64,000 nucleotides of DNA, from the NCBI GenBank assembly GCA_963770955.1, contig CAVYRK010000007.1, positions 145,769 through 209,768 on the forward strand. The letters run 5' to 3'. The position numbers and the translations under genes are program-made. How positions within the stretch are numbered: position 1 is the first letter of the stretch; each line of letters opens with the position of its first letter. This document shows, piece after piece, positions 6,675-35,012 of the stretch. A model generated the notes under the pieces. That model searched no databases. It was not told where the DNA came from and saw only the letters and a program-made list of their open reading frames with translations. Source of the DNA: an uncultured Actinomycetota bacterium. Lineage in GTDB: Bacteria > Actinomycetota > UBA4738.

Positions 6675-6751
6675 GCATTCATGCTGGATCGCCGGTGTCC
6701 GGCCCGGTCCGCCGAAGGTCCCCCGACGGGGGGGACCCGTGTGAGGGCGTG

Positions 6752-13066: not shown

Positions 13067-13082
13067 TCGAGGGAGGTGGAAG

Positions 13083-17569: not shown

Positions 17570-18268
17570 TTAAGGTTTGCCAAGACCGCTGAGCTCGCCA
17601 CCGCTCGGCCCCCTCGCGCTCCCGCCGACGTCCGTGGCGGCCGCGCGAGTGAGCAGCGCGATCACCTCATCGTCGGAGACCTCGGCGAAGTCCTCGTACC
17701 ACTCGTCCAGAGCGAGAATGAGCGGCGGGGTCTCGAGGCAGACCACGGCATCCACCTCTTCCCCCACGGCCTCCGCCGCCTCGCGCGACGAGGCCGGAAC
17801 GGCGACGATGACCCGCGCCGCGCTCCTCTTGACGGCCACGCGCGCTGCCGCCACCGCCGTGGAGCCGGTCGTGAGGCCGTCGTCCACGAGCACGACCGCG
17901 CGCCCCTCGAGGGGCACCTGCGACCGGACGGCTCGGTACCGGGCGACTTCCTGCTCGAGCGCGTGTTCTTCCGAGGCGAGGATTCCGGCGAGCCCTTCCT
18001 CGTTCACGCCCGACTCCTCGAGAAGCTGCATATTGATCACGCGCACGCCGTCCTCGGCGATGGCTCCCAGGGCAAGCTCTGATTCGCCGGGGGTGGGGAG
18101 CTTGCGAACGATCAGGACATCGAGCGGGGCACCCAGGCCACCGGCGACCTCCGCCCCGACGACGACCCCGCCCCGCGGCAACGCGAGCACGACCGACGGG
18201 CGACTCTGCAGATCCCTCAGCCGCTCGGCGAGGGCGCGGCCGGCGTCTCTCCGATCCCGAAACGGCAT
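17570..18268 (-). CDS. Phosphoribosyltransferase-domain protein (Rv0571c-like)
   Basis: PRT-type motif VVLVDDGLTTGSTAVAAARV. N-terminal MPFRDRRDAGRALAERL... is typical of the predicted PRTase family found next to DosR-regulon genes. Confidence 0.7.
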   Translation of the reverse strand: MPFRDRRDAGRALAERLRDLQSRPSVVLALPRGGVVVGAEVAGGLGAPLDVLIVRKLPTPGESELALGAIAEDGVRVINMQLLEESGVNEEGLAGILASEEHALEQEVARYRAVRSQVPLEGRAVVLVDDGLTTGSTAVAAARVAVKRSAARVIVAVPASSREAAEAVGEEVDAVVCLETPPLILALDEWYEDFAEVSDDEVIALLTRAAATDVGGSARGPSGGELSGLGKP

Positions 18269-18271
18269 CCG

Positions 18272-21091
18272 CTACGGGGCGTCGCGACGCGGCCGGCGCC
18301 GGATGACCGCTTTCCGCGCCTCTTCAGCCAGGAAGATCACGGGGATGAATGCTACGAGATAGAGCCACCATCCCGCGCCGATCGCCGCGGTCCCGAACAG
18401 GGGTTGCAGCAGGGGCAGGTAGATCAGTACCGCCGCGAAGACGACCTCGAACGCGATGCCCCACAGCAGGAAGCGGTTGCCGAACAACCCGATCCGGAAC
18501 ACGGACACGCGCTCGGTCCGGCAGGCAAACGCGTTGCCGACCTGCATCAACACGATCCCGAGAAACACGATCGTTGTGGCCTGGAGTCCGATTTCCTTCG
18601 TTGGGGCGGCGGGCTGCCCCCAGGACCACCCGTGCGACGACAAGAACAGGAAGAACGCAGAGAGGACCACCGCCGCAGCCATCCCCCCGAGGAATCCGTA
18701 TCCGCGAACGAGCGCACCGCCGGAGAGGAGCCGCTCGCCGCGCTTGCGAGGGGGCCGGGACATGACGTCGGGCTCGGCGCGCTCGACGCCGAGGGCCAGT
18801 GCGGGGAGGGTCTCGGTTCCGAGGTCGATGGCGAGGATCTGCATCACCGTGATGGGAAGCGGGATCCGAAACAGCGCGTAGAAGATGAACGGAATCGCCT
18901 CGGGCGACAGGTGGGCGAAGATGTAGACGATGAACTTGCGCATGTTGTCAAAGATGGCTCGACCTTCCTCGACGGCTCCGACGATCGTGGCGAAGTTGTC
19001 GTCGACGAGGACCATGTCGGCCGCTTCACGGGCCACGTCGGTTCCGGCGAGGCCCATCGCGACCCCGATGTCGGCTCGCTTGAGGGCCGGGGCGTCGTTC
19101 ACCCCGTCGCCGGTCACCGCGACCACCTCTCCCAGGTCCCGCAGCGCGGTCACGATCCGAAGCTTGTGCTCGGGGGTGGCGCGCGAGAAGAGCACCTGCT
19201 CGGATGCGAGGACCGCCCGCAGGTCCTCGTCCCCCATGCTCTCGAGGTCGCCGGCGTCCACCACCGTGACCGGTCCCGCGCGCACGATGCCGACCTGCCG
19301 GGCGATCGATTCCGCGGTCAGGCCGTAGTCGCCGGTGATCATGATGATCCGGATGCCGGCGATCCGGCACTTCTCCACCGCGGCCGGAACCTCGTCACGC
19401 GGCGGGTCCTGCATCCCGATCAGGCCCGCGAAGATCAACTCCTCCTCGACCGCTCCCGGAGGGATCGAGGTGATGATCGGCTCGTCCTCCGCCGGAAGGT
19501 ATCGATACGCCGTCGCGAGCACCCGCAGACCCAAGAGGGCCATCCGGTCGTTCTCCCGGACGACCCGTTCGCGCAGCTCGTCGGTGAGCGGCAGCTCCCG
19601 GCCGTCCTGCAGGGCCTCCGTGCAGTGCTCCAGAAGCTCCCGGGGCGATCCCTTCACGTACGCGACCAGCTGGCCCTCCTGCGGGAGGGCGCGGTGAATG
19701 GTGGACATGCGTTTGCGCTTGGGCTCGAAGGCCAGCTTCCGCACGACGGGCCGAAGCCGAACGTCGAACTCGCGGTCCAGCCCCGCCTTGGCGGCGGCAA
19801 CCAGAAGGGCCCCTTCCGTCGGATCCCCTGTCGTTCGCCAGCCTTCGTCCTCGTTCAGCGGACCGATCAGCTTGGCCGAGTTGCACAGGTGGCCGATCCG
19901 GAGCGCCGGATGGAAGGCGACCAGCTCGGCCTTCGTCGCAATGCGCCCGTCGATCAGGAAGTCCCCTTCCGGCGCGTACCCCACTCCCGTCACGGTGGCG
20001 AGGCGTCCCACCGCCCACACCTCCTTGACGGTCATCTGGTTCTTGGTGATGGTGCCGGTCTTGTCCGTGCAGATCACCGTGCACGAGCCGAGGGTCTCCA
20101 CCGAGGACAGCCGCTTGACGATGGCCTTCCGGGCCGCCATCCGCTGCACGCCCATCGCGAGCGCGAGGGTCATCGTGGGCAGAAGGCCCTCCGGAACGTT
20201 CGCGAGGACGATGCCGATCGCGAAGATCGCTCCGTTCCGCAGGGTCAGGCCGGCCACCAGATACCCGATGAGGAAGAACCCCACGCCCATGGCGACGGAG
20301 AGGAGCGCGACCCGCTGCGCGACGCGCCCAACCTCGACCTGGAGCGGACTCGGTTCCTGACGGACGGCCTGGGTGAGCTGGGCGATCCGACCGAACTCGG
20401 TGTGCATGCCCGTGGCCACGACGACGGCCGTCGCGTCGCCGGAGATGATCGTGCTGCCGGCGAAGACCATGTTGTGCGCCTGGATGGCCGTCTTCGGAGG
20501 CACGGGCTCGGGATCGGCGACCTTGTGCACCGGCACGGCTTCGCCGGTCAGGCTCGACTCATCGGACCGAAGATCCGCGGCATCGACGAGCCGGGCATCG
20601 GCGGAGACCTTGTCTCCTTCCTCGAGGACGAGGACGTCTCCCGGCACCAGCTCATCGGCGGGGATGCGGAGCTGTTGACCCTCTCGCCGCACGGCGGCGG
20701 CGGCGGGGAGCAGGCGCTTCAGCGCCGCCACGGCACGCTCCGCCCGATTCTCCTGGAGGAAGCCGAAGACGCCGTTCAGCACGATGACCGCGACGATGGC
20801 GACGGCGATGCCGGGCTGTCCCGAGACCAACGCGAGGACGCTTCCCGCCCACAGCAGCAACGCGAACAGATGTGTGAACTGGCCCCCCAGTCGCCGCACC
20901 CAGCTCGGGCCCGGCACCTCCTCGATGCGGTTGGGCCCCATTCTGGTCAGGCGCTCGGCCGCATCGGTCCCGGAGAGACCCGACGGGCCGGTGTCGAGCG
21001 CGTCGAACACCTCGTCCCGGCCCAGAACCGGGATGCGCCCGGGCTCACTGGGAAGGCGTGTGGCTACCGCGGCCTCGGGTCGACCCTGCAT
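18272..21091 (-). CDS. Cation-transporting P-type ATPase (type II; CtpF-like), second copy
   Basis: 939 aa with TGE (LTGEAVPV), ICTDKTGTIT, MITGDYGLTAESIAR and VTGDGVNDAPALKRADIGVAMG. Confidence 0.9.
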   Translation of the reverse strand: MQGRPEAAVATRLPSEPGRIPVLGRDEVFDALDTGPSGLSGTDAAERLTRMGPNRIEEVPGPSWVRRLGGQFTHLFALLLWAGSVLALVSGQPGIAVAIVAVIVLNGVFGFLQENRAERAVAALKRLLPAAAAVRREGQQLRIPADELVPGDVLVLEEGDKVSADARLVDAADLRSDESSLTGEAVPVHKVADPEPVPPKTAIQAHNMVFAGSTIISGDATAVVVATGMHTEFGRIAQLTQAVRQEPSPLQVEVGRVAQRVALLSVAMGVGFFLIGYLVAGLTLRNGAIFAIGIVLANVPEGLLPTMTLALAMGVQRMAARKAIVKRLSSVETLGSCTVICTDKTGTITKNQMTVKEVWAVGRLATVTGVGYAPEGDFLIDGRIATKAELVAFHPALRIGHLCNSAKLIGPLNEDEGWRTTGDPTEGALLVAAAKAGLDREFDVRLRPVVRKLAFEPKRKRMSTIHRALPQEGQLVAYVKGSPRELLEHCTEALQDGRELPLTDELRERVVRENDRMALLGLRVLATAYRYLPAEDEPIITSIPPGAVEEELIFAGLIGMQDPPRDEVPAAVEKCRIAGIRIIMITGDYGLTAESIARQVGIVRAGPVTVVDAGDLESMGDEDLRAVLASEQVLFSRATPEHKLRIVTALRDLGEVVAVTGDGVNDAPALKRADIGVAMGLAGTDVAREAADMVLVDDNFATIVGAVEEGRAIFDNMRKFIVYIFAHLSPEAIPFIFYALFRIPLPITVMQILAIDLGTETLPALALGVERAEPDVMSRPPRKRGERLLSGGALVRGYGFLGGMAAAVVLSAFFLFLSSHGWSWGQPAAPTKEIGLQATTIVFLGIVLMQVGNAFACRTERVSVFRIGLFGNRFLLWGIAFEVVFAAVLIYLPLLQPLFGTAAIGAGWWLYLVAFIPVIFLAEEARKAVIRRRPRRDAP

Positions 21092-21126
21092 TCGACCACT
21101 CTAGGGCGGGAGCCCGGACGCCTTGA

Positions 21127-22197
21127 TCAACAGATGCGAGGGAGCTGATCGCCGGACAGCAGCAGCAGCGGCCGGCTCCCGCCCAGACCGGTGCGGACGC
21201 GCACCGCGGGCTCCCCCGCTTCGACGCGGCCGACGATCGCGGCGTGCTCTCCGAGCGGATGTGCCCGGGCGGCCGCGAGCACGGCATCGGCGTCCGGGCC
21301 GTGCACCACGGCGACGCACACGCCTTCGTTGGCGACGTACAGCGGGTCGAGCCCGAGCATCTCGCACGCGCCCCGGACCGGATCGGGGATCGGGTACGCC
21401 TCCTCCTCCGTGGTGATGGCGGCGGACGAGGCCTGGGCGATCTCGTTCAGCACGCTCGCCACGCCGCCGCGCGTCGCGTCCCGGAGCGCGTGGACGTCCC
21501 CCGCCGCGAGCATCGCCCGCACGACGCCGGTCAGCGGAGCGCTGTCGCTCGCCGGCGCCCCATCGAACTCGATGCCCGCGCGGCGCGACATGACCGCCAC
21601 GCCGTGCGCCCCGATCGGCCCCGAGACCAGCACCGCGTCGCCGGGCCGCGCGCGCTCGGGCCCGAGCTCGACGCCGGCCGGAACCACCCCGACGCCTGCG
21701 GTCGTCACGTAGAGGCCGTCGGCGCTCCCCCGCTCCACCACCTTGGTGTCGCCCGTCACGAGCTCGACGCCGGCACCCTCGCAGGCCGCCGCCATCGACG
21801 CCACCACGCGGCGAAGGTCGTCCATCGGCAGGCCCTCCTCCAGGATCAGGGCCGCCGACAGGAACAGGGGCGTCGCGCCCATCATCGCCAGGTCGTTCAC
21901 CGTGCCGTTCACCGACAGGGCACCGATGTCGGACCCGGGAAAGAACCTGGGCTGCACCACGAACGCATCCGTAGTGAACGCGAGCCGCACGCCCTCGGCC
22001 TCCACGACCGCGGCGTCGCCGAGGCGCGACAGCTCGCGTCCCCCGAACGCGGGGAGGAACACCGACCGGATCAGGTCCGCGGTCAGACGGCCGCCGCTGC
22101 CGTGCCCCAGCAGCACCGACTCGCCGGCCGGGAGCGGCACGGGGCACTCCAGCGCAACCTCCGTGCCGCGCGCGTCGGCGGGCTCCCCGCGCTCCAC
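21127..22197 (-). CDS. hypE: Hydrogenase expression/formation protein HypE
   Basis: AIR-synthase-like fold and HypE motifs ([17 protein letters not shown]). The diagnostic C-terminal ...GDQLPRIC is present. GTG start overlaps the hypD stop. Confidence 0.9.
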
Positions 22198-23302
22198 TCA
22201 CGACGGTACCGTCTCGCGGCGGCGGCCGGCCAGGTAGTACGCGGCGCAGGCGCCCTCCGACGACACCATCGGGGCTCCGAGCGGGTGCTCGGGCGTGCAC
22301 TCCGTTCCGAACACCGAGCAGTGGTGCGGGCTTCGCCCTGCCCTGCAGCACCATGCCGGCGATGCACTTCTCGGACTCGGGAACCTCCTCGATCACCTCC
22401 GGGAAGCGGGCCTCGGCGTCGAACGCGCGGTAGGGCTCGGTGAGCCGGAACCCGCTGTTCGGAATCGGCCCCAGGCCCCGCCACGCGCGGTCGCACGGCT
22501 CGAACACCTCGGCGACCACCCGCATGGCGGCGGCGTTCCCCTCGCGGACCACCGAGCGGACGTACTGGTTCTCCACCTCCGCGCGCCCTTCCTCCAGTTG
22601 CAGGACGGCCATGCGGATGCCCTCCAGGAGGTCGAGCGGCTCGAACCCCGTCACGACGATCGGCACGCGGAACCGCTCGGCGATCGGCTCGTACTCCGTC
22701 CACCCCATGACCGTGCAGACGTGCCCGGGCGCCAGGAACGCCTGGACCCGGTTGCCGGGCGAGGCCAGGATCGCCAGCATCGCCGGTGGCACCAACACGT
22801 GCGCGACCAGCAGCGTGAAGTTGTCGATGCCCCGGAGCTTCGCCTGCCGAACGGCCATGGCGTTCGCCGGCGCGGTCGTCTCGAAGCCGACGGCGAAGAA
22901 CACGACCGTCCGGTCGGGGTTCGCGCGAGCGACCTCCACCGCGTCCAGCGGGGAGTACACGACGCGGACGTCGCCGCCGGCGGCCCGCGCCATGAACAGG
23001 TCCTCGCTCGAGCCGGGCACGCGCAGCATGTCGCCGAACGAGGTCAGTATCACGTCGGGCCGCTTCGCCAGCGACACGGCGCGGTCGATGACGGCGAGCG
23101 GCGTGACGCACACGGGACACCCGGGGCCGTGCACCATCTCGACCTCGTCGGGCAGGAGCTCGTCGATCCCCTGCCGCACCAGCGTATGCGTCTGCCCGCC
23201 GCAGACCTCCATGATCGTCCACGGCCGGGTGACCGTGTGCCGGATGTCGGCGAGCATGCCGCGCGCGATGCGCGAGTCGCGGTACTCGTCCACGTACCTC
23301 AC
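22198..23302 (-). CDS. hypD: Hydrogenase formation protein HypD; apparent +1 frameshift at ~22316 separates the C-terminal CPxFG...[22 protein letters not shown] segment
   Basis: N-terminus (V)RYVDEYRD... and motifs [15 protein letters not shown]. After ...LQGRAKPA the conserved [30 protein letters not shown] is found in another frame. Deleting one C restores KPAHCSVFG. Confidence 0.85.
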
Positions 23303-23580
23303 GGCGCTGCCCCCTCTCTGGCCACCGGCGGCTCCTGGGGCAGGTCGATGCCCTCGAGATTCCCCATCTCCTCCAGCAGCGCGTACGAGCGCGCTGCCTC
23401 TTCCTCGTCGACCACCGAGATCGCGAATCCGACGTGGACGATGACGAACGAGCCGACGTCCACCTCCGGCGCGTACTCCAGGCACGCCCGCCTGGTGATC
23501 CCGCCGAAGTCGACCACCCCCATGCGAAGGCCGTCCTCCGCGTAGACCTCCGTCACCTTCCCCGGCACGCCAAGGCACAT
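23299..23580 (-). CDS. hypC: Hydrogenase maturation factor HypC
   Basis: [12 protein letters not shown]... (the essential Cys2) and ~93 aa total. Overlaps the hypD start (GTGA). Confidence 0.85.
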
Positions 23581-23587
23581 GACGTCA

Positions 23588-25912
23588 TCACCTCCACTCG
23601 CTCGCCCGACCCTCACCCCGGCGGCCATGCGCCACCAGCACCTGTCCGAGGCTGATCCCTCCGTCGCCCGCGGGCGCCTGTCGCGGCACGAAGACCTGGA
23701 AATCGTTGCGCTCCAGCCGTTCCACTGTAGCGGTCAGGAGCAGATCGTTCTGGAACACTCCGCCCGCCAGGCACACGCGATCCGGGCCGCCGTCGTTCCT
23801 GATGGCGCGGCACACACCCTCGACGGCGGCGGCGACCGCGCGGTGGAACCGCATCGACACGGTGCCGGCATGCTCACCCGCGCCCAGGTCGGACACCACG
23901 GCGGCGATCACGGGCCTCGTGTCCACCAGGAACCGGCCGCCGTCACGCTCCACCGCGGCCGGATACGCTCCCGTCGCGCTCGGGTCCGCGGCCTGCTCCA
24001 GGAGGATGGCCGGCTGTCCCTCGTACGTCGCCCGGCCGCACACGCCGGCGAGCGCGGCCACGGCGTCGAACAACCGGCCCGCCGAGCTGGTGAGCGGCGA
24101 GGCCAGGCCGGTGTCGAGCTGCGCCAGCACGACGCCGCGTTCCTCGTGGGACAGTCGATCGGCGCCGCCTCCGTCCACGAGCGCGAGCGCTTCCTCCAGC
24201 ACACCGGCATCAAGGGCATGCGCCAGCGCCATGCGCTCGGGCCGCCGCACGGCGGCGTCGCCGCCCGGCTGACGCACCTGGCGCAGGTGCCCCGCGCGCT
24301 CGGCGCGCCGCTCGTCGCACACCAGGAATTCCCCGCCCCAGGCGGTTCCATCCTCGCCCAGGCCGAACCCGTCGAACGCCACGCCGAGCACCGTGCCGGT
24401 GAGGCCGTGCTCGGCCATGACGGCGGCGACGTGCGCGTGATGGTGCTGCACGGCGACCGACGGGAGGCCGAGCGACTCGGCCAGCCGTGTGGACGCGAAG
24501 TCGGGATGCAGGTCGTGGGCGACCACCTCCGGCTCGATGCCGAACAGGGCGCGGTACCGCTCCAGCGCCGCCCGGAACGCCGCGACGGTCGGTTCCGAGT
24601 CCAGGTCACCGACGTGCTGGGAGAGGAAGGCCCGGTCCCCGCTCGCCAGGCAGAAGGCCGCATGCAGCTCGGCCCCGACCCCCAGGGCCGGGATCACCTC
24701 GTGGGCGAGCCGAAGGGGCGCCGGAGCGAGCCCCCGGGCCCGGCGCATCACGGCCGGCGCGCCGCGCCAGACCCTGACGACCGAGTCGTCGTAGCGCGCG
24801 ACGATGTCCCGGTCGTGCACCAGGAAGGCGTCGGCGATGGCTCCGAGGGTCGTCGCCGCCTCGGCGTTCCCCGTGCAGATCGGCTCATCGGATCGGTTCC
24901 CGCTCGTCATCACCAGCGGGCGCCCGGCCTCGCGCAGCAGCAGATGGTGCAGCGGCGTGGAGGGCAGCATCGCCCCCTGGCGCCGGTGTCCGGGGGCCAC
25001 GGACTCCGCCAGCAGGCCGCGGTCGCGGACCAGCACGATCGGAGCGACGGCGCCGGCGAGCGCCCGCTCGTCGTCGGGGGAGAGATCGAACCGGCGGCGC
25101 GCCTCGTCGAGCGTCGCCACCATCACCGCGAACGGCTTGTCCGGGCGCGCCTTCCGAAGGCGCAGCTCGCGGACCGCCCGGTCGTTCGTGGCGTCGCACG
25201 CCAGCTGGAAGCCACCCAGGCCCTTCACGGCGACGATCGCGCCGGCACGCAGCAGCCGCGCCGCGGCCTCGATGGGATCGTCGTCCCCCGTCCCGAGCGC
25301 GCGTCCGTCGGCCGCGACCAGCGAGATTCGCGGGCCGCAGGCCGGACACGCCACCGGCTCGGCGTGGAAGCGCCGGTCCGCCGGGTCCCCGTACTCGCGC
25401 GCACAGGCCGCGCAGAGCGGAAAGGCCCGCATGCTGGTGCGCTCGCGGTCGTACGGGAGCCCTTCGATGATCGTGAACCGCGGGCCGCAGTCGGTGCAGT
25501 TCACGAACGGGTACCGGTGGCGGCGGTCGCCGGGGTCGAACAGCTCCGCGAGACAGGCGGCGCACGTGGCGACGTCCGGCGGAACCATCCGGCCCGCCTC
25601 GCCCGCCTCGCCCGCCTCGCTCGCCGCGACCACGAACGACGAGCGGCCCGTCGCGAGGGCCGGTGTGGTGCGGACCGAGTCGACGCGCGCGAGCGGCGGC
25701 GCCTCCCGGGCGATCGCGTCCGTGAAGGCCTCCAGCGCCTCCGGACGGCCTTCGGCCCGGATCTCGACCACGCCGTCCCGGTTGCGCACCCATCCCCCCA
25801 CCCCGTGGCGTTGCGCCAGCCGCCACACGTGCGGCCGGAACCCGACGCCCTGGACGACGCCGCGCACCTCGACCTCGAGCGCCCGCACGTCCGTCCGCAG
25901 CGCCTCCGTCAT
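23588..25912 (-). CDS. hypF: Carbamoyltransferase HypF
   Basis: 775 aa from MTEALRTD. N-terminal acylphosphatase (VRGVVQGVGFRPHVWRLAQRHGVGGWVRN), two CxxC Zn-finger pairs, then YrdC and Kae1-like regions. Confidence 0.9.
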   Translation of the reverse strand: MTEALRTDVRALEVEVRGVVQGVGFRPHVWRLAQRHGVGGWVRNRDGVVEIRAEGRPEALEAFTDAIAREAPPLARVDSVRTTPALATGRSSFVVAASEAGEAGEAGRMVPPDVATCAACLAELFDPGDRRHRYPFVNCTDCGPRFTIIEGLPYDRERTSMRAFPLCAACAREYGDPADRRFHAEPVACPACGPRISLVAADGRALGTGDDDPIEAAARLLRAGAIVAVKGLGGFQLACDATNDRAVRELRLRKARPDKPFAVMVATLDEARRRFDLSPDDERALAGAVAPIVLVRDRGLLAESVAPGHRRQGAMLPSTPLHHLLLREAGRPLVMTSGNRSDEPICTGNAEAATTLGAIADAFLVHDRDIVARYDDSVVRVWRGAPAVMRRARGLAPAPLRLAHEVIPALGVGAELHAAFCLASGDRAFLSQHVGDLDSEPTVAAFRAALERYRALFGIEPEVVAHDLHPDFASTRLAESLGLPSVAVQHHHAHVAAVMAEHGLTGTVLGVAFDGFGLGEDGTAWGGEFLVCDERRAERAGHLRQVRQPGGDAAVRRPERMALAHALDAGVLEEALALVDGGGADRLSHEERGVVLAQLDTGLASPLTSSAGRLFDAVAALAGVCGRATYEGQPAILLEQAADPSATGAYPAAVERDGGRFLVDTRPVIAAVVSDLGAGEHAGTVSMRFHRAVAAAVEGVCRAIRNDGGPDRVCLAGGVFQNDLLLTATVERLERNDFQVFVPRQAPAGDGGISLGQVLVAHGRRGEGRASEWR

Positions 25913-26397
25913 CGGCGCGCGACCCCGGCGAGCTCTCTGGCGACGCCGGCCGCCGCGGCGGCGACGTCCGGAATCGCCGCCAGAACCGGGGGCGAGAGCG
26001 GGCTCCCGGCCGCGACGTCGCGCACCTCGACCCCGACGAACGCCACCCGGGAGGGCACGCCCACCGCCGCGGCGACCCCCACGGTCTCGGCGACCCCGAG
26101 GCCGTGCGAGGACAGCGCGGAGCGCAACCCGTCGGGAATGCCGTCGCGGAGGTCGTCCACCCGCACGACCTCTCCCGGCCGGTACGCCCCGCGCGACCGC
26201 ACCGCGTCGACGACGACGGCCGGGATTCCGTCCTGCAGCAGGTCCAGCAGCCGCAGAGGCGAGCCGGCCTCGACGACCTCGGCGCCCGGCACGTCTCGGA
26301 GCAGCCGCCGGATCTCGGCCGCGGCCGCGAGGCCGGCGCCGTCGTCGCCCGCATCGGGATTGCCGCAAGCGATCACGCGGACCGCGGCCTCGCTCAT
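25909..26397 (-). CDS. Hydrogenase maturation (C-terminal processing) endopeptidase
   Basis: [26 protein letters not shown]... is typical of HycI/HoxW-type proteases. ~162 aa. Sits between the large subunit and hypF (ATGA overlap). Confidence 0.8.
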   Translation of the reverse strand: MSEAAVRVIACGNPDAGDDGAGLAAAAEIRRLLRDVPGAEVVEAGSPLRLLDLLQDGIPAVVVDAVRSRGAYRPGEVVRVDDLRDGIPDGLRSALSSHGLGVAETVGVAAAVGVPSRVAFVGVEVRDVAAGSPLSPPVLAAIPDVAAAAAGVARELAGVARR

Positions 26398-27710
26398 TCC
26401 CGGCGCACGTCCAATCGAAGGAAGTGTGTCGCGCAGGAGATGCACGGGTCGTACGTCCGAACGAGCATCTCGCACGACAGCGCGAGCTCCGGGTCGGGTT
26501 GGTGGACGACGCCGGGAATGAACGCCCGGAGGTCCTCCTCGATGTGCCGGAGGTTCTGTGAGGTGGGCGGGACGATCTTCGCCTCGAGGATCGTGCCGTC
26601 GCCGCCCACGTCGTAGCGGTGGAAGAGGATGCCGCGAGGAGCCTCGGTCACCCAGGCGCCCCGCCCCGCCTTCGGCCGGACGTCGGCCATGGGCGGCTCG
26701 GGAGGCTCGTACGCCTCGATCAGGCGCAGCGACTCCTCCAGGGCGACCGCCGTCTCGACGACCCGGGCCGGCATCGACGCGAAGCGATCGCGCACCGCAC
26801 CCCCGTCGACGCCGAGCCGGACCGCCAGCTCGGCCGCCACCGGCGTCAGCCGGCCCCGGTTCAGGTTCAGCCGGGCGAGCGGCCCCACCATGTAGGAGCC
26901 GCCGCCGGTGAACCGGGCGTGCAGCGCGTTGGAGTGCTCGACGTGCAGCTCCTCGACGGTCGTCCTCGAACGTCGCCGCGTCGAACGCGCGGCCCTCCGT
27001 CGACGCCAGCGTCCCCTCGTTCATCGGGTACTCGTCCGGATGCACCATCGCCACCATCTCGGTCGCGAGGTCGAAGGACGGCGCCGGCAACCCCGACGCC
27101 CACTCGGCGACGTCCCGGATCGCCGCGATCGCGTCCTGCGAGTCGGCCGGACAGCGCGCGCAGGTCCCGCGGTCGCGGCGCGCGCGAGAAGCCACCCACG
27201 CGCGGAGACACCGGATGGATCTCGCGGCCGCCGATCGTGGCCAGCAGGTCGTTGCCCAGTCGCTTGATCCGCAGGCCGCGCTCGACGGCGGCCCGTTCGC
27301 GCTGCGCCATCTCGATCGCGCTGTCGTATCCGAGGAGGTCCGGCGCGGCCAGCAGGTGGACGTGGAGCATGTGGCTCTCGATCCACTCCGCGCAGTACAG
27401 CATCCTGCGCAGCTCGCGCGTCCCCGGCGGCACCTCGCACCTCGAACAGCTCTTCCAGCGCGTGCACCGCGCTCATCTGGTACGCGACCGGACAGATGCC
27501 GCAGATCCGGGGAACGATGTCGGGCACCTCCGAGAAGTGGCGCCCGGCCAGGAAGGCCTCGAAGAACCGGGGCGGCTCGTAGATGTCCAGCCGGAGGTCG
27601 ACGATCTCGTCGCCGCGAAGCCCGAGGTGCAGCGCGCCCTCGCCCTCCACGCGGGCGATGGCCGGCACCTCGATGAGGCGGTTCGGCGACGCGGGGTTCG
27701 CGTGGGTCAC
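26394..27710 (-). CDS. hyhL: NiFe hydrogenase large (alpha) subunit, group 3b type; currently broken into three frames (at least 3 indels, including a 7-bp tandem duplication at 27431-27444)
   Basis: N-terminal [12 protein letters not shown]...[14 protein letters not shown] (RxCGxC). The mid-region [23 protein letters not shown] and [16 protein letters not shown] are in different frames. The C-terminus carries the DPCxxCxxH nickel motif ([10 protein letters not shown]) followed by a cleavable tail. Confidence 0.85.
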
Positions 27711-28511
27711 GTCGCGCACCTCCCGTTCCTGCGTCCCCTCGGTCTCCGGTTCGTCGAAGGCGTCCCGGAACGCGGGCGCCCATCCGGTGATGAACCGGAA
27801 GCTGGACGCGGCCAGCGACGGGGACATCCCGAGCTGGACGAACTGGCGGCGAAGCGCCTCCACGTTGGGCGGCTGCGAGGGACCGAAGCAGCCGTAGCAC
27901 CCGCGGCCGAAGGCGGGGCACAGCGCGCCGCAGCCGGTCCGCGTGACCGGTCCGAGACACGGCTCGCCCTTGGCCACGACCACGCAGACGTACCCGCGCC
28001 GCTTGCATTCGACGCAGACCGGCACGGTCGACACGCGAGGCATGGCGCCCTGCAGCAGTGACGCGATCGCGCCGAGCAGCTGGCCGCGGTCCACCGGGCA
28101 GCCCGTCAGCTCGAGGTCCACCCGCACGTGGTCGGCGATCGGCGTGGACGTGGCGAGCGAGCTGATGTACTCGGGCGTCGGGTAGACGGCCCGCACCGTC
28201 TCGCCCGCGTCCATCCAGTTGCGGAGCGCCTGCACGCCGCCCGACGTCGCACACGCGCCGATCGTCATCAGGAACGTCGAGACCTCGCGGATATGCGCGA
28301 TCTCCTCCAGCTGCGCCGGCGTCGACACCGACCCCTCCACGATCGTCACGTCGTAGGGGCCGGGGTCCGTGTGCGAGGTCGCCTCGGTGAACTGCACGAT
28401 GTCCACGGCCGTCGCCAGGTCGAGCAGCGCCTCCTCGGCGTCCAGCAGCTGCAGCTGGCACCCGTCGCACGAGGCCATCTTGAACACCGCGATGCGCGGC
28501 CGGGCGCTCAC
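27708..28511 (-). CDS. hyhS: NiFe hydrogenase small (delta) subunit, group 3b type; reads through into the large subunit with no in-frame stop (probable indel near its 3' end)
   Basis: (V)[23 protein letters not shown]..., [14 protein letters not shown] and the distal-cluster Cys motifs [12 protein letters not shown]...[30 protein letters not shown] start overlaps the gamma stop (GTGA). Confidence 0.8.
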
Positions 28512-29383
28512 AGCTCCGCCACTCCCAACCACTCCTCGGCCGTGCTCCAGGGAAAGACCGGCCCGTCGTGACACACGAACACGGGACCGAACTGGCAGTG
28601 CCCGCACAGGCGCACGGCGCACTGCATGTTCCGTTCCATGGACACCCACACGTGGTCCGGCGAAACGCCTCGGTCGACGAGACCCTTCGCCGCGAACCGC
28701 ATCATGATCTCCGGACCGCAGACGAACGCGGTCGTCCGGTGCGGGGCGAGCCCGGCCTGCTCGTACAGCGTGGTCACCACGCCGTGGGTGAACGGCCACG
28801 CGTCGTCCGGCACGTCGACGGTCTGATGGACCTCGATGGCGCGGTCGCGGATCCAGTGGCTCCACGCGTCGAGCTGGTGCCGGTACAGCATGTGCTCGGG
28901 CCCGCGGGCGCCGACCAGGATCATCACGCGGCGGAACCGCCTCCGACGGTGGATGGCCCGGTAGATGATGGGGCGCACCGGAGCGAGCCCCAGGCCGCCG
29001 GCCACGATGAGCAGGTCGCCGCCCTCGGCCTCGTCGACCGGCCAGGGCCGCCCGTACGGACCGCGCAGCCCCAGGCGGTCACCCGGACCGATCGACCGGA
29101 ACAGGTCGGTCACCCGTCCCGTGGCCCGGATGGTGTGGGCCAGGCGCTCGGGCGCGCCGGGTCCGACGAGATCGAGATCGGCACCTCTCCGGATCCGAAG
29201 ACGTACAGCATGTTGAACTGCCCGGGCAGGAACCGGTAGGCGGCCCGCCGTTCCGGGTCCGCGATGGACAGCCAGTACGTCGCGGTGTCGGGCGTCTCCT
29301 GCACGACCCGCCGCACCACGCGCGACCGAGTCCGGCATCAGCGAAACCGCCGGAACGGCCGCCGGGGCGACGACGGTGGTCAT
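28508..29383 (-). CDS. hyhG: Hydrogenase gamma subunit (FAD/NAD(P)-binding oxidoreductase with a C-terminal 2Fe-2S site); 1-2 apparent frameshifts (~29150 and ~29330)
   Basis: The N-terminal part [45 protein letters not shown] is in ORF 29110..29319. It continues in another frame as [15 protein letters not shown]...[13 protein letters not shown]...[23 protein letters not shown]. Confidence 0.75.
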
Positions 29384-30501
29384 TCGGACGGTACGGCGGC
29401 CACGACGACCCCGTCCTCGATGCGGATGGCGGCGATCTCCTCGGTCACGTCGATCCCCACGGGACACCAGGTGATGCACCGGCCGCACCCGACGCACCCG
29501 GAGGTGCCGAACTGGTCGATCCACGACGCGAACTTGTGCGTCAGCCACTGCCGGTAGCGCGACGAGCGCGCCGTTCGGACGTCCCCACCCACGGTGTGGC
29601 TGAACTCGTCGCTGAAGCACGAGGCCCACTCGCGGGTCCGCGTCGCGGTGGTTCCCAGGATGTCGGTCGCGTCCACCACGTCGTGGCAGAAGCACGTCGG
29701 GCACGCGGACGTGCAGTTCCCGCACGCCAGGCAGCGGTCGCCCACCTCGAGCCAGCGCGGATGCTCCCGGTTGCGGTAGAGCAACCCCGGCAGGTCGCCG
29801 GTCTCCAGAGCCCGTCCCATCGCGCCGGTGGCCCGCTCGGTGACCTCCCGGTCGGCCCGTTCCTCGTCGGGGGTGGCCTCCCGGGCACCGGCCGCCAGCA
29901 GCAGCTCGGCCCCGAGCTCGGTGCCGGCGTCCGCGACGAAGCCCCCGTCCAGCTCGGTCAGGGAGACGTCGAACCCGCTCGAGCACCGGGGTCCCGTTCC
30001 CATGGACGCGCAGAAGCACGTCCCCCCGGGGAACTCGCAGTTCATCGCGACGAACACGGCGTCGCGCCGCCGTTGGGCGTACGCCGGGTCCGGGGCCGGA
30101 CCCTCCAGGAACACGCGATCCTGGACGGCCACGGCGTGCAGGTCGCAGGAACGGATGCCCACGAATGCGATCGGCCGCTCGTCCTCGGGCGTGGCGGGCT
30201 CGAATCGCAGATCGCCGTCATCGCGCGCAGCGGTGCCCAGGACCTCGCGGGCGGGAAAGAGGAAGCGCTTGGCCGAGTCCGGCCCGTGGGCGAACCCGAA
30301 CCACCGGTCGTCCGCCCGTGGGACGACCCGGTACCGGCCGGCCTCCTGCTCCTCGCCCATCCCGCGCGGAAGCTCGTCGGAGGACGAAATCTCGTCGAGC
30401 ACGATCGCCCCGTCGCGGACGGTGGGTCCGATCAGCCGGTATCCGCGGCCGACCAGATCCTCGAGCAGCCGTTCGAGTCCACTCCTGTCGACAAACCGCA
30501 T
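29380..30501 (-). CDS. hyhB: Hydrogenase beta subunit (4Fe-4S ferredoxin-type, sulfhydrogenase HydB-like)
   Basis: 373 aa with Cys-rich motifs CEFPGGTCFCASMGTGP, CLACGNCTSACPTCFCHD and CVGCGRCITWCPVGID. Confidence 0.8.
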   Translation of the reverse strand: MRFVDRSGLERLLEDLVGRGYRLIGPTVRDGAIVLDEISSSDELPRGMGEEQEAGRYRVVPRADDRWFGFAHGPDSAKRFLFPAREVLGTAARDDGDLRFEPATPEDERPIAFVGIRSCDLHAVAVQDRVFLEGPAPDPAYAQRRRDAVFVAMNCEFPGGTCFCASMGTGPRCSSGFDVSLTELDGGFVADAGTELGAELLLAAGAREATPDEERADREVTERATGAMGRALETGDLPGLLYRNREHPRWLEVGDRCLACGNCTSACPTCFCHDVVDATDILGTTATRTREWASCFSDEFSHTVGGDVRTARSSRYRQWLTHKFASWIDQFGTSGCVGCGRCITWCPVGIDVTEEIAAIRIEDGVVVAAVPSE

Positions 30502-30504
30502 CCG

Positions 30505-31126
30505 CTATCCCCGGGCACCGACCTCAGCGTCGAATTCGAAGCGTACACCCAGCACCCCCGGCACACTCCGGGCGAGCAGCTCGGCGAGCCGGCGCTCCGA
30601 CGGGCCGCCGCCTCCGGCGAGGACCACCTCGCCGCCGCGCACGATCACGTCGAAACGTCCGACCATGAAGGCCTGGTCACCGATCAGGGCCTCCACGTCC
30701 GCCTTGATCTCGGAGTCCTCGCGGACCATCGTCCGGAGCAGGTCGCGACGGCTCAGGATGCCCACCACGCGAGCCCCCGACACGATCGGGATGCGCTTCA
30801 CGCGGCGTTCGACCATCAGGCGCGCGGCCTCAGCCGCGTCCGCGTCCTCCGGGAGCGCGATCACGTCCCGCGTCATCACTTCGTCCGCCTGCATCTGGAC
30901 CCTCGACGGAGGCTCCCCGGTGGGGAGGATGTGCCGCCTCGGGTCCTCGGAGGTCTCCAGCCGAACGAGGTCGGCCTCGGACACGATCCCCACCAGCCAG
31001 CCGTCGTCCCCGACGACCGGCACCGCGCTGATCCCGCGCTCGACGAGGATCGACGCAACCTGCTTCAAGGAAGTCGTGGGCGAGACGCACACGACCGGGT
31101 GTCGACATCAGCTCCTTCACACGCAT
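30505..31126 (-). CDS. CBS-pair plus BON-domain protein, first gene of the hydrogenase transcription unit; apparent 1-nt insertion near 31098 displaces the first ~10 codons
   Basis: MRVKELMSTP is in one frame and (V)CVSPTTSLKQVASILVERGISAVPVVGDDGWLVGIVSEADL... is in the next. Removing one G from CCCGGTC joins them as ...MSTPVVCVSP.... The C-terminal BON-like segment is GGEVVLAGGGGPSERRLAELLARSVPGVLGV. Confidence 0.75.
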
Positions 31127-31266
31127 CGAACTCACCTCCGATACCATGCTCCGGCAGGCGGCTGCTCCCATCCCGGGTCCTCCGACCCGCATGCCGGAGG
31201 TCCATTGGCGGTTGGTTCCGGAGCTCGCCCGGTCCAGGCTCGAGGCGGCGCACACTGGAGGCGACC

Positions 31267-31734
31267 ATGGACACGACGCGTGACGACCGAATCACCCTCG
31301 GGACGGTGGGCGACGCGATGACGGCGACCGTCGTCACGATCGGCCCGGACGAGCCGCTGGGCGAGGCCGCGAGAACGCTGGAGCGCGCGGGCGTCTCGGG
31401 CGCTCCGGTCCTCGACGGCGATCGCGTCGTCGGGGTCCTGTCACTCCGCGACATCCTTCGCTCGACCGGCGACGGCGGCGGCCCCGTGGCGACGACCGGC
31501 CCCTGGCTCCGACACGAGCGCGACCTCGATCGCTCCGGCCGGCTGGTGGCGGACATCATGAGCCGCCGGACCGTGACGGTGCGCGCCTCGGACTCAGTGG
31601 TCGACGCGGCTGCGCGGATGCAGGCGGCCGGCGTGAACCGGGTTCCCGTGATCGACGACGACCACCATCTGGTCGGCATCCTCACCCGCGACGACATCGT
31701 CGCGGCCGTGGCGGGGTCGCGCCGTCCGGGCTGA
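31267..31734 (+). CDS. CBS-domain pair protein
   Basis: 155 aa with two CBS motifs (VGDAMTATVVTIGPDEPLGEAARTLERAGVSGAPVLDGDRVVGVLSLRDIL; VADIMSRRTVTVRASDSVVDAAARMQAAGVNRVPVIDDDHHLVGILTRDDI). Confidence 0.8.
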   Translation: MDTTRDDRITLGTVGDAMTATVVTIGPDEPLGEAARTLERAGVSGAPVLDGDRVVGVLSLRDILRSTGDGGGPVATTGPWLRHERDLDRSGRLVADIMSRRTVTVRASDSVVDAAARMQAAGVNRVPVIDDDHHLVGILTRDDIVAAVAGSRRPG

Positions 31735-31744
31735 CCGACACCGA

Positions 31745-32176
31745 TCAGGCGACGGGCACGGGCTGCACCAGCTCGACGCGAACCTCGGGCGGCTGGCGCA
31801 TCGAGTTGTGGACGGTGCACCGGTCCACGACGGCCCGGAGCCCGTCCAGGCGCTCCGGCGGGAACCCCGCGGGAAGCGCCAGATTGACGTCGATGCGCGA
31901 CACGCGTGCCGGATGCTCCGCCATCTGGAACCGGCACTGCACGCGCAGCCCGTCGGCGTCGATCTCGTGGCGCCGCATGTATCGCTCGGCGAAGTACCCG
32001 ATGCAGGCGCCGAGCGAGACGACGAACAGCTCCACCGGGGTGGGGCCGAGGTCCTGGCCACCCGCGTCGTACGGTTGGTCGGTGGTCAGGAAGTGCGCCC
32101 GCACGTCGACCACGAACGAGTCGCCGGAGGTCCAGTAGACCGAGATGCCGGAGCGGGAGGCCGTCATCGCACCCAC
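31745..32176 (-). CDS. OsmC/Ohr-family peroxiredoxin-like protein
   Basis: 143 aa. Motif GPTPVELFVVSLGACIGYFAE matches the OsmC fold and first Cys region. Confidence 0.8.
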   Translation of the reverse strand: MGAMTASRSGISVYWTSGDSFVVDVRAHFLTTDQPYDAGGQDLGPTPVELFVVSLGACIGYFAERYMRRHEIDADGLRVQCRFQMAEHPARVSRIDVNLALPAGFPPERLDGLRAVVDRCTVHNSMRQPPEVRVELVQPVPVA

Positions 32177-32177
32177 C

Positions 32178-32726
32178 TCAGATGAAGAGCGTGATGGCGT
32201 CCTGGGCTTCCATCAGCATGGTCGTCGCGCCGGCGGGCTCCGACAGCCCGTCGATCATGTCCTCACGACGGAGCCCCAGGAGGTCCATCGTCATCTGGCA
32301 GGGGACCAGCTTCACCCCGAGCGCCACGGCAGTCTGCAGCAGCTCGCCCGGGCTCGCGACCTCGTGCTCGCGGGCGAGGTGCTTCATCATCGCGGGCCCG
32401 GCCCCGGCGAAGTTCATCTTGCCGAGCTTCAGGTGCTCGATGCCCGGGCGATCCATCATCGCCATCATCTTCTGCATCCAGTCGTCGCCGGTGATCCGCA
32501 CGTCGTCCTTCACCAGGGCGAACAGCCCCCAGAAGGTGAAGAACACCGTGGTGTCCATCCCCATGGCCGCGCCCGTGGTCGCCAGGATCATCTGCGGCCA
32601 CACCTTGTCCAGGTCGCCGCTCCACGCGATGATCACCAGCTTCTGGTGGGGAACGTGCTCGTGCGTATGCGCCGGGACCGGCGTCTCCTGCTCTCGGACC
32701 GCTTCATCGATCGCCACGTGACTCAC
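32178..32726 (-). CDS. DsrE/DsrF-like sulfur-relay family protein (copy A)
   Basis: KLVIIAWSGDLDKVWPQMILATTGAAMGMDTTVFFTFWGL...GVKLVPCQMTMDLLGL matches the DsrE/YchN fold. The probable GTG start overlaps the tusA stop (GTGA); the upstream 26 codons of the called ORF are likely not translated. Confidence 0.65.
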   Translation of the reverse strand: MSHVAIDEAVREQETPVPAHTHEHVPHQKLVIIAWSGDLDKVWPQMILATTGAAMGMDTTVFFTFWGLFALVKDDVRITGDDWMQKMMAMMDRPGIEHLKLGKMNFAGAGPAMMKHLAREHEVASPGELLQTAVALGVKLVPCQMTMDLLGLRREDMIDGLSEPAGATTMLMEAQDAITLFI

Positions 32727-32956
32727 CCCTTCCTCAACAGGAAGCGGAACACGCCCGCCTCCTCGGTCTGCTCGACGAGCTCGTTGCGCGTGGCCCGGCA
32801 CCAAGCCGAGAAGTCCGGCACCGACCCGGGGTCGGTCGCCAGCACCTCGACGACGTCACCGGTCGCACACTCCTTCATTGCCAGCGCCGTCTTGACGATC
32901 GGCATCGGACAGGCAAGGCCCTTCAGATCCAACTGCTTGGCGATCGTCACGCTCAT
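32723..32956 (-). CDS. tusA: TusA-like sulfurtransferase (SirA/YedF family), copy A
   Basis: 77 aa with the CPxP motif (LDLKGLACPMPIVK). Confidence 0.8.
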   Translation of the reverse strand: MSVTIAKQLDLKGLACPMPIVKTALAMKECATGDVVEVLATDPGSVPDFSAWCRATRNELVEQTEEAGVFRFLLRKG

Positions 32957-32969
32957 TTGCGCCCTCCTC

Positions 32970-34118
32970 TCACATGGCCCGTTCCGGGATCCGGCCTTGC
33001 GGCACGGTCACCCAGTACAGGCGGTTGAACATCCACTTGGCCGAGTGCCACAGCGCCGAGGGCGCCGGCGGCACCGGCGGGTGCTCGTAGTCGAATCGAA
33101 GCGCGGTGGCCTTGCGGCCGCCCGTCTCCAGGAAGCACATGACGCGCCCGCCGTAGTTGGTCCGCGGGGCCGTCCCCCGGACCAGGGACGCGATGCGGCT
33201 CGCGACGACCGGCGCCTCGAAGTGCGCCGTCGACCCGCTCTTGCTGATCGGGAGGTTCGTCGCGTCGCCCAGGGCGAAGATGCGCTCCCGCCCCTCGACC
33301 TGCAGCGTGTGCCGGTCGGTCGGGACCCATCCGCCCGCGTCGCCGAGTCCAGCGTCCTCGATGACCTGTTGCCCCCGGTGGGGCGGCACCAGGACGAGAA
33401 GGTCGTATTCGGCCTTCTCGCCCTCGAGCGACTCGACGGTCCCCGCGTCCGGATCCACCGACTCGACGTTGAAGAACGTCTGGAGCCCGATGCCCCGGCG
33501 CTCCATGATCGGCTGGACCAGCTTCGAGGCCGGCTCCACCGTGAACGCGCGGCTGAGCGGCGACAGCAGCGTCACCTCGCTCCGGTCGCGAATCCCCCTG
33601 CGGCGCAGTTGCTCCTCGATCAGCAACACGTACTCGACCGGCGCGGGCGGGCACTTGTAGGGAATGCCGGCCACGCCGACCAGGAGGCGGCCGCCGCGAA
33701 ACGCGCGCGCGGCCTCGCGGAGGCGCAGCGCGCCGTCCAGTGAATAGAAGTGGTGCGCGCCCTCGACCATCCCCGGCACGTTCTCGGGAAGCAGGCGAGC
33801 TCCGGTGGCCAGGACCAGGTAGTCGTACGGCACGGTCGACCCGTGCTCGAGCCGGACCACGCCCTCCCCGGTGTCGATCGCCGCTGCGGCCTCCACCGCC
33901 AGCTCGACGCCCGGTCGCAGCAGGCCTCGCTCGTCGCGGGACAGCCACCGGCCGTTCGCCTGGCCGAGCGCGACGTACAGGAAACCCGGCTGGTACTCGT
34001 GCATCCCCGTGGGGTCGACCACGGTGACGCGGGCGTCACGGCCGAGTTGGCGGTCCAGCAGGTTGGCGACCAGGGTCCCTCCGACCCCGCCGCCCAGCAC
34101 CACGATGCGCGCCGGCAT
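32970..34118 (-). CDS. sqr: Sulfide:quinone oxidoreductase (FAD-dependent pyridine nucleotide-disulfide oxidoreductase)
   Basis: N-terminal FAD site IVVLGGGVGGTLVANLL. Conserved KCPPAP cysteine motif and a second Rossmann region (ALGDATNLP). 382 aa. Confidence 0.8.
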   Translation of the reverse strand: MPARIVVLGGGVGGTLVANLLDRQLGRDARVTVVDPTGMHEYQPGFLYVALGQANGRWLSRDERGLLRPGVELAVEAAAAIDTGEGVVRLEHGSTVPYDYLVLATGARLLPENVPGMVEGAHHFYSLDGALRLREAARAFRGGRLLVGVAGIPYKCPPAPVEYVLLIEEQLRRRGIRDRSEVTLLSPLSRAFTVEPASKLVQPIMERRGIGLQTFFNVESVDPDAGTVESLEGEKAEYDLLVLVPPHRGQQVIEDAGLGDAGGWVPTDRHTLQVEGRERIFALGDATNLPISKSGSTAHFEAPVVASRIASLVRGTAPRTNYGGRVMCFLETGGRKATALRFDYEHPPVPPAPSALWHSAKWMFNRLYWVTVPQGRIPERAM

Positions 34119-34124
34119 GGCGCG

Positions 34125-34364
34125 TCACCGGCTCTTCCGGATGACGAACCGCGCGAATCCATCCTCGTCGGCGACCTCGACCAGCTCGTGGCCGGCCTTG
34201 GCCGTCCAGGCGGGAATGTCGGTCCGCGACCCGGCATCGCTCGACAGGACGGCGATCACGCGTCCCACCGGCTCCTCGCGGATCGCTCCGATCAGCGACA
34301 GCAGCGGGCCCGGGCACGCCAGGCCTCGCGCGTCGATCTCCCGATCCACCTGTACGACGGTCAT
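34125..34364 (-). CDS. tusA: TusA-like sulfurtransferase, copy B
   Basis: 79 aa from MTVVQVDREIDARGLACPGPLLSL (CPxP motif). The upstream ~290 codons of the called ORF are junk. Confidence 0.8.
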   Translation of the reverse strand: MTVVQVDREIDARGLACPGPLLSLIGAIREEPVGRVIAVLSSDAGSRTDIPAWTAKAGHELVEVADEDGFARFVIRKSR

Positions 34365-34378
34365 CGATCTCACTCCTC

Positions 34379-34807: not shown

Positions 34808-34874
34808 GTCCCGTTCCTTTCCGCCTTGCACGCACCCACAGTCGTTCACCGCGCACCCGGAGCGTGGGGCCGCC

Positions 34875-34943
34875 GGACCCGCATTGGAGGGGTCCAACGG
34901 CAGGACACCCGGGGGGGCCGGTCGTCCCGGACGGCGCGGGACC
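34875..34943. promoter_or_regulatory. Pair of inverted repeats in the divergent DsrE / flavodoxin-CBS promoter region: GGACCC-N9-GGGTCC (34875-34895) and GTCCC-N9-GGGACC (34924-34943)
   Basis: Read directly from the sequence. Arm sequence and 9-bp spacer are the same as the element at 3697-3717. Confidence 0.3.
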
Positions 34944-35012
34944 GACGACCCGAGGAGGGACGCGGGCCGCGGTGGATGCTCGGCGTGACCGACGACGAGG
35001 GAGGGATCGACG

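Follow-up and report, generated by a model that had tools for sequence, protein, structure and literature searches.

The 64-kb window analysed here (64,000 nucleotides (nt) of contig CAVYRK010000007.1 from an uncultured Actinomycetota bacterium) carries on its minus strand, between positions 17570 and 31126, a string of twelve co-directional genes. The explanation that best accounts for the whole, and which we regard as probable, is that the locus encodes a genuine group 3b (Hyh/sulfhydrogenase-type) soluble [NiFe]-hydrogenase of the uncultured actinobacterium. Judged by its sequence the locus is a typical group 3b hydrogenase cluster, with maturation genes and a DosS/DosR-type neighbourhood, and belongs to a well known class. 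As sequenced, eight frame breaks interrupt five of its genes, most likely as uncorrected single-base insertion errors of the assembly.

The G+C content of the window is about 72% and raw lists of open reading frames (ORFs) are crowded with spurious frames, so that the true frames were picked by the G+C content of the third codon position (GC3). Genes were confirmed by profile searches against Pfam and NCBIfam and by tblastn with intact orthologues. The related loci used for comparison, designated by L numbers, were 167 overall, eleven of them of the group 3b type. All twelve gene families which an earlier note on this DNA had named were found in the minus-strand order it had given. Each in a single frame are hyhB, the protease gene, hypF, hypC, hypE and the two last genes of the string, encoding a cation ATPase and a phosphoribosyltransferase-domain protein (PRT); the breaks in the five others had passed unnoticed in the earlier note.

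The four hydrogenase subunit genes follow a gene for a protein with two CBS domains and a BON domain (CBS-BON, 30505-31126; both domain types by Pfam), which starts at ATG 31126 with a ribosome-binding site, GGAGG, 6 nt upstream. hyhB (29380-30501) encodes the AsrA-like beta subunit with a 4Fe-4S dicluster domain (Pfam Fer4_22; best NCBIfam match ShyB/HydB) and is intact, matching residues 1-363 of its 374-residue orthologue in one frame by tblastn. The gamma subunit gene hyhG (28508-29383) yields, when its frames are stitched, the FAD/NAD(P)-binding and Fe-S domains (NAD_binding_1 and DHODB_Fe-S_bind; HydG/ShyC in NCBIfam). The small, or delta, subunit gene hyhS (27707-28511, GTG start at 28511) matches Oxidored_q6 in Pfam and ShyD/HydD in NCBIfam, and hyhL (26394-27710) encodes the large, or alpha, subunit with the L1 motif RICGIC and the L2 motif DPCISCATH.

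This set of AsrA-like Fe-S beta, FAD/NAD(P)-binding gamma, small delta and large alpha subunits is the complete four-subunit architecture of group 3b. The group 3b identity proposed earlier is supported by the PDB and NCBIfam matches, as the best matches of the subunits are sulfhydrogenases. For HyhL the best structures are those of the sulfhydrogenase I alpha subunit (9nez, 9e15, 5yxy; E = 1e-62 to 3e-59), against E = 1e-47 to 1e-45 for group 3d structures and 1e-42 or weaker for groups 3a and 3c; its best NCBIfam matches are ShyA and HydA, all four subunits match best with the sulfhydrogenase Hyd/Shy models, and a database search returned hundreds of homologues annotated as sulfhydrogenase alpha. 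Both large-subunit motifs quoted by the earlier note exist in the DNA (L1 at 27477-27509, L2 at 26421-26450). The two CxxC ligand motifs are thus both present, while they come to lie in one protein only after three frame corrections, and the four subunits are not all in intact frames, with two breaks in hyhG, one in the hyhS tail and three in hyhL. The HyhL C-terminus reads DPCISCATH followed by FLRLDVRRE, a nine-residue extension after L2 which fits processing by the endopeptidase encoded next to it.

The dedicated maturation set announced by the earlier note, a protease and hypFCDE, is present according to both Pfam and NCBIfam. It consists of the maturation endopeptidase of the HycI/HybD superfamily (25909-26397; Pfam HycI, TIGR00072; intact), hypF (23588-25912; intact, in one frame by tblastn, with the Pfam domains Acylphosphatase, two zf-HYPF, Sua5_yciO_yrdC, HypF_C and HypF_C_2), hypC (23299-23580; intact, HupF_HypC, confirmed by tblastn), hypD (22198-23302; one break, the stitched protein spanning positions 3-348 of the 351-position HypD profile) and hypE (21127-22197; intact, AIRS and AIRS_C, confirmed by tblastn). 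The highest identity of the HypF protein to any GTDB representative is 68%. The lack of hypA and hypB, also stated by the note, was confirmed for the whole window, and the same queries detect both genes in other loci; hypB is present in 34 of the 167 loci overall, and neither gene lies within the flanks of any of the eleven group-3b-type loci. Judging from this gene content, a cluster without hypA and hypB nearby is normal for this clade. In Mycobacterium smegmatis, too, hypA and hypB are placed elsewhere in the genome (MSMEG_2721-2722; PMC2799521). One candidate for a substitute of HypB within the window, a 442 amino acid protein of the cobW/HypB/UreG domain family (3785-5113, minus strand), was rejected, its matches being weak and partial (G3E GTPase match with Pfam E = 7e-6, ZigA E = 2.5e-4) and without hyh linkage in relatives. 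An orthologue of this cobW-like protein, with 58% identity, is found in L061.

From homology, the hyhBGSL products would form a heterotetramer, in which HyhL would carry the Ni-Fe site, with the CxxC pairs of RICGIC and DPCISC as ligands, HyhS the Fe-S clusters, and HyhG the binding sites for FAD and NAD(P)H, with HyhB as the AsrA-like Fe-S subunit. The enzyme would couple NAD(P)H and H2 reversibly. HypF, HypC, HypD and HypE are predicted to build the Fe(CN)2CO moiety, the endopeptidase to cut the nine-residue tail after DPCISCATH, and nickel insertion by HypA/HypB to be encoded elsewhere, as in related genomes. The cluster would probably be switched on under oxygen limitation, with excess reductant disposed of as H2, as for Hyd3 of M. 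smegmatis.

Support for such a control comes from the regulatory genes of the window. A DosT/DevS-like histidine kinase with GAF-GAF-HisKA_3 domains by Pfam (1564-3201, minus strand) matches in its first GAF domain the heme-binding GAF-A of M. tuberculosis (PDB 2vzw, DosT, E = 1e-47; DevS structures about 1e-44; 2w3d, E = 3e-43), and its orthologue, with 65% identity, adjoins hypE in L087, the nearest relative. The DevR/DosR-like response regulator, NarL-type by Pfam (858-1529, minus strand), has full-length DevR as its best structure (3c3w, E = 6.5e-55), leading the next PDB match by 10 orders of magnitude. The surroundings of the hydrogenase include a pair each of P2-type ATPases, CBS-CBS-BON genes and CBS-pair genes, besides one PRT gene. 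In M. tuberculosis the P-type ATPase gene ctpF, the CBS-pair gene Rv2626c and the PRT gene Rv0571c have footprinted DevR sites (PMC3177182, PMC7753917). The CBS-pair gene divergent from the cluster (31267-31734, plus strand; two CBS domains by Pfam) has Rv2626c among its PDB matches (E = 2e-7), not as the top match.

The divergent promoter region between this CBS-pair gene and CBS-BON/hyh (31127-31266) holds, 49 nt before the ATG of CBS-BON, the palindrome GGGTCCTCCGACCC (31175-31188), which retains G3-G5 and C7 of both Dev-box half-sites with the correct spacing (criteria of PMC3177182). A relaxed palindrome, GGGWC-N4-GWCCC, defined post hoc, has three matches in the window against 1.45 expected, all three of them intergenic where 6.7% of the window is intergenic. 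One of them is the CBS-BON site, another lies in the divergent region 34808-35012, and the third precedes the kinase operon; in L002 the relaxed palindrome is found 84 nt upstream of hyhB. The region 34808-35012 separates a DsrE2-like gene (ATG 34807) from a flavodoxin-like gene (ATG 35013), itself followed by a CBS-pair gene, and contains three GGGNC-N4-GNCCC palindromes within 85 nt (34867, 34915 and 34938), two of them near-copies; the triple palindrome is reminiscent of the Dev boxes that stand in tandem in DevR promoters. A perfect GC-rich hairpin, GCGGGGGGCGAGCGCCCCCCGC (3735-3760), just past the stop codon of the cobW-like gene, is probably a terminator; it fits the relaxed palindrome and is therefore a false positive of that search. 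The DevS/DevR-like genes and the Dev-box-like palindromes together point to a predicted hypoxia control like that of M. smegmatis Hyd3.

The eight frame breaks of the cluster are distributed as one in CBS-BON, two in hyhG, one in the hyhS tail, three in hyhL and one in hypD. Compared with intact homologues, hyhL consists of four collinear pieces in frames f0, f2, f1 and f0, and DNA alignment with two close relatives, L003 (91% identical in the protein) and L004, places the extra bases as a C at 27437, a C at about 27140 and a G at 26961, none of the three lengthening a homopolymer run. In hyhG the three-frame view shows shifts near 29320 (f2 to f1) and near 29155 (f1 to f2), and by tblastn the orthologue residues 21-81 and 78-294 match in different frames. 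The extra G of hypD, at 22327 by DNA alignment to L085 and L087, lies directly before the C-terminal CX14CX6CX16C motif. The four breaks that could be placed to the base are each an extra G or C between unlike bases, outside homopolymer runs. The variable tail of hyhS (about 27707-27744) shows a 4-nt length difference in the alignment and a net gain of one nucleotide relative to L003, because of which the expected stop TGA (27709-27707), within the conserved GTGA at 27710-27707, is out of frame as sequenced and hyhS runs in frame into hyhL.

CBS-BON has a +1 break near 31097, and its longest ORF as sequenced begins at GTG 31092. The 5' end at 31126 given by the earlier note is the true N-terminus, MRVKELMSTP, while the frame in which it lies differs from that of the rest of CBS-BON; the joined N-terminus, MRVKELMSTP followed by VVCVSPTT, is backed by the paralogue at 35525, VKELMTSPVVNV.

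Frame segmentation of the window revealed four further breaks, each of the +1 type and in genes unrelated to the cluster, which brings the total to twelve. The genes concerned encode an amino-acid permease (break near 6150), a GNAT-fused acyl-CoA synthetase-like protein (near 7995), a ferric-reductase-like membrane protein (near 15475) and a nitrilase (near 54165). That the same kind of break hits unrelated genes elsewhere counts for a sequence error, and 11 of the 12 breaks behave as +1 insertions (P = 0.003). The broken cluster genes contain no nonsense codons and no deletions and have kept all motif and catalytic residues; the stitched HyhL aligns over 100% of its length, at 91% identity, with an intact 437 amino acid homologue (P0001). 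Furthermore, in a public long-read metagenome-assembled genome of the same clade (L008) one inserted G (GGC[G]GGC) breaks hypD near 12855. In another public long-read genome of a relative (L013) hypE is split over two frames near 15840.

Some observations weigh against the explanation as a whole. The breaks are unevenly spread, the 13.5-kb cluster having 8 of the 12 (P about 9e-4) and 2.4 kb of hyhG-S-L as many as 6 (P about 2e-6), a pattern that decay of the structural genes would give as well. With regard to regulation, the strict DosR box GGGAC-N4-GTCCC with at most one mismatch is not enriched in the window (10 occurrences against 9.4 expected), nor is the motif derived from relatives, GGACCTTSGRCCC (17 against 15), and the relaxed palindrome was settled on only once the data had been inspected, which leaves it suggestive. 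Finally, the activity, the cofactor preference and the regulation of the enzyme are predictions taken from homologues only.

The uneven spread, with half of the breaks within 2.4 kb of structural genes, is what would be expected if the breaks were real, the hydrogenase inactivated, and hyhG, hyhS, hyhL, hypD and CBS-BON decaying into pseudogenes in this lineage. It would also suit this possibility that every gene broken elsewhere is of a dispensable type (among them the permease and the nitrilase), while full Pfam domains are matched by each of TrpRS, FtsH and Nth, and that amino-acid changes unique to the lineage of the window outnumber those unique to its sister in HyhL and HypD. The relative-rate test gives window-unique to sister-unique ratios of 15:7 (HyhL) and 19:8 (HypD), but the unbroken HypE gives a similar excess (23:15), so that the broken genes show no specific acceleration; as HypE shares the lineage excess the test fails to separate error from decay. 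Further points against decay are the lack of stops, deletions and lost motif residues, the closeness of HyhL to its intact homologue and the same defect in the long-read relative L008. Spontaneous mutation favours deletions and slippage, and a series in which 11 of 12 events are +1 insertions, most of them not duplicating the adjacent base, is unlike it. We therefore consider true gene decay unlikely, if still a serious alternative to assembly error.

Far less credible, to the point of being nearly negligible, is a functional meaning of the breaks, by which a natural HyhS-HyhL fusion and programmed +1 frameshifting would give active proteins. The small and large subunit genes do share a frame with no stop in between, and the three shifts of hyhL, like the two of hyhG, sum to zero, whereby the C-terminal parts regain the starting frame. 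However, in relatives S and L are distinct genes joined by the conserved GTGA overlap, which is present here out of frame, and none of the shifts is found in any relative; this led us to reject both the fusion and the programmed frameshifting. The sites have no common slippery or stimulatory motif either, and genes unrelated to the hydrogenase show identical breaks. Insertion errors of the assembly thus remain our preferred reading of the eight breaks.

The tight co-directional spacing noted earlier was confirmed throughout the string, with gaps of 0-35 nt or 4-nt overlaps. A 3-nt gap separates the CBS-BON stop (30505) from the hyhB ATG (30501), and ATGA or GTGA overlaps join hyhB to hyhG (ATGA, 29383-29380), hyhG to hyhS (GTGA, 28511-28508), hyhL to the protease gene (ATGA, 26397-26394), the latter to hypF (ATGA, 25912-25909) and hypC to hypD (GTGA, 23302-23299). 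Between hypF and hypC there is a 7-nt gap, the hypD TGA (22198) and the hypE GTG (22197) are directly adjacent with a gap of 0 nt, and gaps of 35 nt and 3 nt follow between hypE and the ATPase gene and between the latter and the PRT gene. Scans for promoters and terminators, which are weak for high-GC actinobacteria, gave no sigma-70 promoter-like site and one terminator-like site, inside hypD, against 2.1 expected. Folding z-scores of hairpins in the hypE-ATPase gap, after the PRT gene, between the ORF and the ApbE gene which follow it, and at the end of the string were about zero. By these scans the genes could be transcribed together.

A conserved core is evident by comparison of the relatives. 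The nine genes hyhBGSL-protease-hypFCDE are found in the same order and with the same 4-nt overlaps in L001, L005-L008, L165 and L166, and partially in L002, whereas the gene order of the whole string is not conserved. The earlier claim of one functional unit is not supported beyond this nine-gene core, possibly with CBS-BON, the ATPase and PRT genes not being conserved. Its 3' limit at the PRT gene is arbitrary, since the series goes on with three more minus-strand genes, which reach down to 15315 and leave gaps of 47 nt and 72 nt.

The first of the two genes beyond hypE encodes a P2-type cation ATPase (18272-21091; Pfam Cation_ATPase_N and Cation_ATPase_C), with PEGL at residue 300, DKTGT at 343 and GDGVND at 661, and with types IIA2, IIC and IIA1 as best NCBIfam matches. 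No CPC, CPH or SPC motif of the heavy-metal P1B type was found in it, and a P2-type pump with PEGL and DKTGT and lacking CPx is no nickel supplier. The second is the PRT gene (17570-18268; Pfam Pribosyltran), for which no linkage to hyp genes was seen in relatives save a 39%-identity match in L028. ATPase and PRT genes after hypE are absent in all relatives examined, including L085-L087 and L005-L008. In the closest relatives, L086 and L087 (HypE 80-82% identical), hypE is followed by a convergent AlaDh_PNT-like tandem pair and then by a DosS-like kinase. The counterparts in the window are the AlaDh_PNT-like pair at 12870-15433 (plus strand), 5.8 kb beyond, and the kinase at 1564-3201. With the pair following hypE in L086 and L087 and sitting further on in the window, the block of ATPase, PRT, ORF, ApbE and ferric-reductase-like genes (21091 to 15315) looks like a lineage-specific insertion after hypE, and by the same comparison the AlaDh_PNT-like pair would mark the ancestral downstream boundary of the cluster. 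AlaDh_PNT-like tandem pairs, with identities of 46-70%, lie beside hyh/hyp in L002 (15159-17476), L086 and L087 (3803-6066).

It is accordingly doubtful that the whole string is a single obligatory operon whose CBS-BON sensor, hydrogenase, maturation proteins and cation pump act together. Such an operon would agree with the gaps of at most 35 nt or overlaps, with the lack of significant hairpins and of terminator-like sites (apart from that inside hypD), with the CBS-BON gene co-directional upstream of hyhB also in L166 and with a second ATPase/CBS-BON pair within the window. The ATPase and PRT genes are missing after hypE from all relatives examined, even those whose HypE is 80-82% identical, the ATPase is a P2-type enzyme without a metal-binding CPx motif, and the co-directional genes run past the PRT gene, so that the proposed 3' end is not special. 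The second P2-type ATPase (9484-12073, minus strand) is 39% identical to the first and is divergent from the second CBS-CBS-BON gene (12320-13064, plus strand); between the two, at 12234, lies GGACCTTCTGCCC, a near-match to the motif upstream of hyhB in relatives.

The CBS-BON orthologue upstream of hyhB in L166, with 56% identity, is the only one so placed. In this locus pyruvate:ferredoxin oxidoreductase (PFOR) and DHO_dh-like genes lie between CBS-BON and hyhB (2514-7129), an arrangement which is consistent with a fermentative, reductant-disposal role of the hydrogenase. Upstream of the cluster in the window, on the minus strand, is a sulfur-trafficking module (31745-34807) composed, according to Pfam, of OsmC, DsrE2, TusA, an SQR/FCSD-like flavoprotein, a second TusA and a DsrE2-like protein. 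Families of this module adjoin hyp or hyh in L075, L135, L139/L140, L142, L150, L161 and L166, and TusA, DsrE2 and SQR-like genes directly follow hypE in about seven loci from other phyla; in L166 the sulfur genes are divergent from CBS-BON-PFOR-hyh, with an SQR-like protein of 73% identity. The physiological role of "sulfhydrogenases" has long been debated, and the adjacency of TusA, DsrE2 and SQR-like genes to hyp/hyh is a lead on it. It is conceivable, if rather improbable, that the hydrogenase sits in a conserved DevR-type-controlled module linking H2 metabolism to sulfur trafficking. If so, a bacterial group 3b enzyme would work in vivo with persulfide or polysulfide carriers in a true "sulfhydrogenase" pathway, and the CBS-BON protein would be the nucleotide-sensing switch of that pathway.

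Elsewhere in the window, GC3 did not single out any confident coding frame in a stretch of about 1 kb (46735-47746); Rfam and tRNA scans of the whole 64-kb window, this stretch included, gave no match.

The locus adds one more actinobacterial group 3b cluster to a known class. The proximity of DosT/DevS-DevR-like genes would extend the mycobacterial picture of hypoxia-induced fermentative H2 production to a deeply divergent, uncultured lineage of the Actinomycetota. From the data quality point of view, reading at the level of motifs can pass silently over frameshifts, while any gene caller would call the five broken genes pseudogenes or, in the case of HyhS-HyhL, mis-fused; for this reason functional inference for this genome hinges on whether the indels are real.

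Three known systems are nearest to this locus. Sulfhydrogenase I (HydBGDA) of Pyrococcus furiosus and Thermococcus has the same heterotetramer architecture and provides the best structure match of HyhL, over residues 14-432 of 437. With 243 bits, HyhL scores far under the equivalog cut-offs of the archaeal enzymes (700-880), and is therefore to be seen as a distant bacterial relative for which a sulfur-reducing activity cannot be claimed. In the DevR/DosR regulon of M. tuberculosis (ctpF/Rv1997, hrp1/Rv2626c, Rv0571c, devRS) are found, at the family level only, the same families that flank the hydrogenase, i.e. a P2-type ATPase, a CBS-pair protein, a PRT-domain protein, a heme-GAF kinase and a NarL-type regulator. 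Compared with the M. tuberculosis Dev box the half-sites of the window read GGG(A/T)C, without enrichment of the strict box; two divergent promoter regions of the window carry Dev-box-like palindromes.

The third system is Hyd3 of M. smegmatis, composed of beta, gamma, delta and alpha subunits and a peptidase, induced by low oxygen and encoded next to the devR cluster (PMC2799521). The window differs from it in that hypFCDE directly follow the protease gene, that CBS-CBS-BON heads the string and the P2-type ATPase and PRT genes come after hypE, and that the host is an uncultured, deeply divergent member of the Actinomycetota with five genes frame-broken as sequenced. As in Hyd3/Hyh (MSMEG_3931-3927), the same beta-gamma-delta-alpha genes are followed by an M52-type peptidase gene in an actinobacterial host, and where Hyd3 adjoins the devR cluster of DosR-regulon-like genes, the window has DevS/DosT-like and DevR-like genes of its own.

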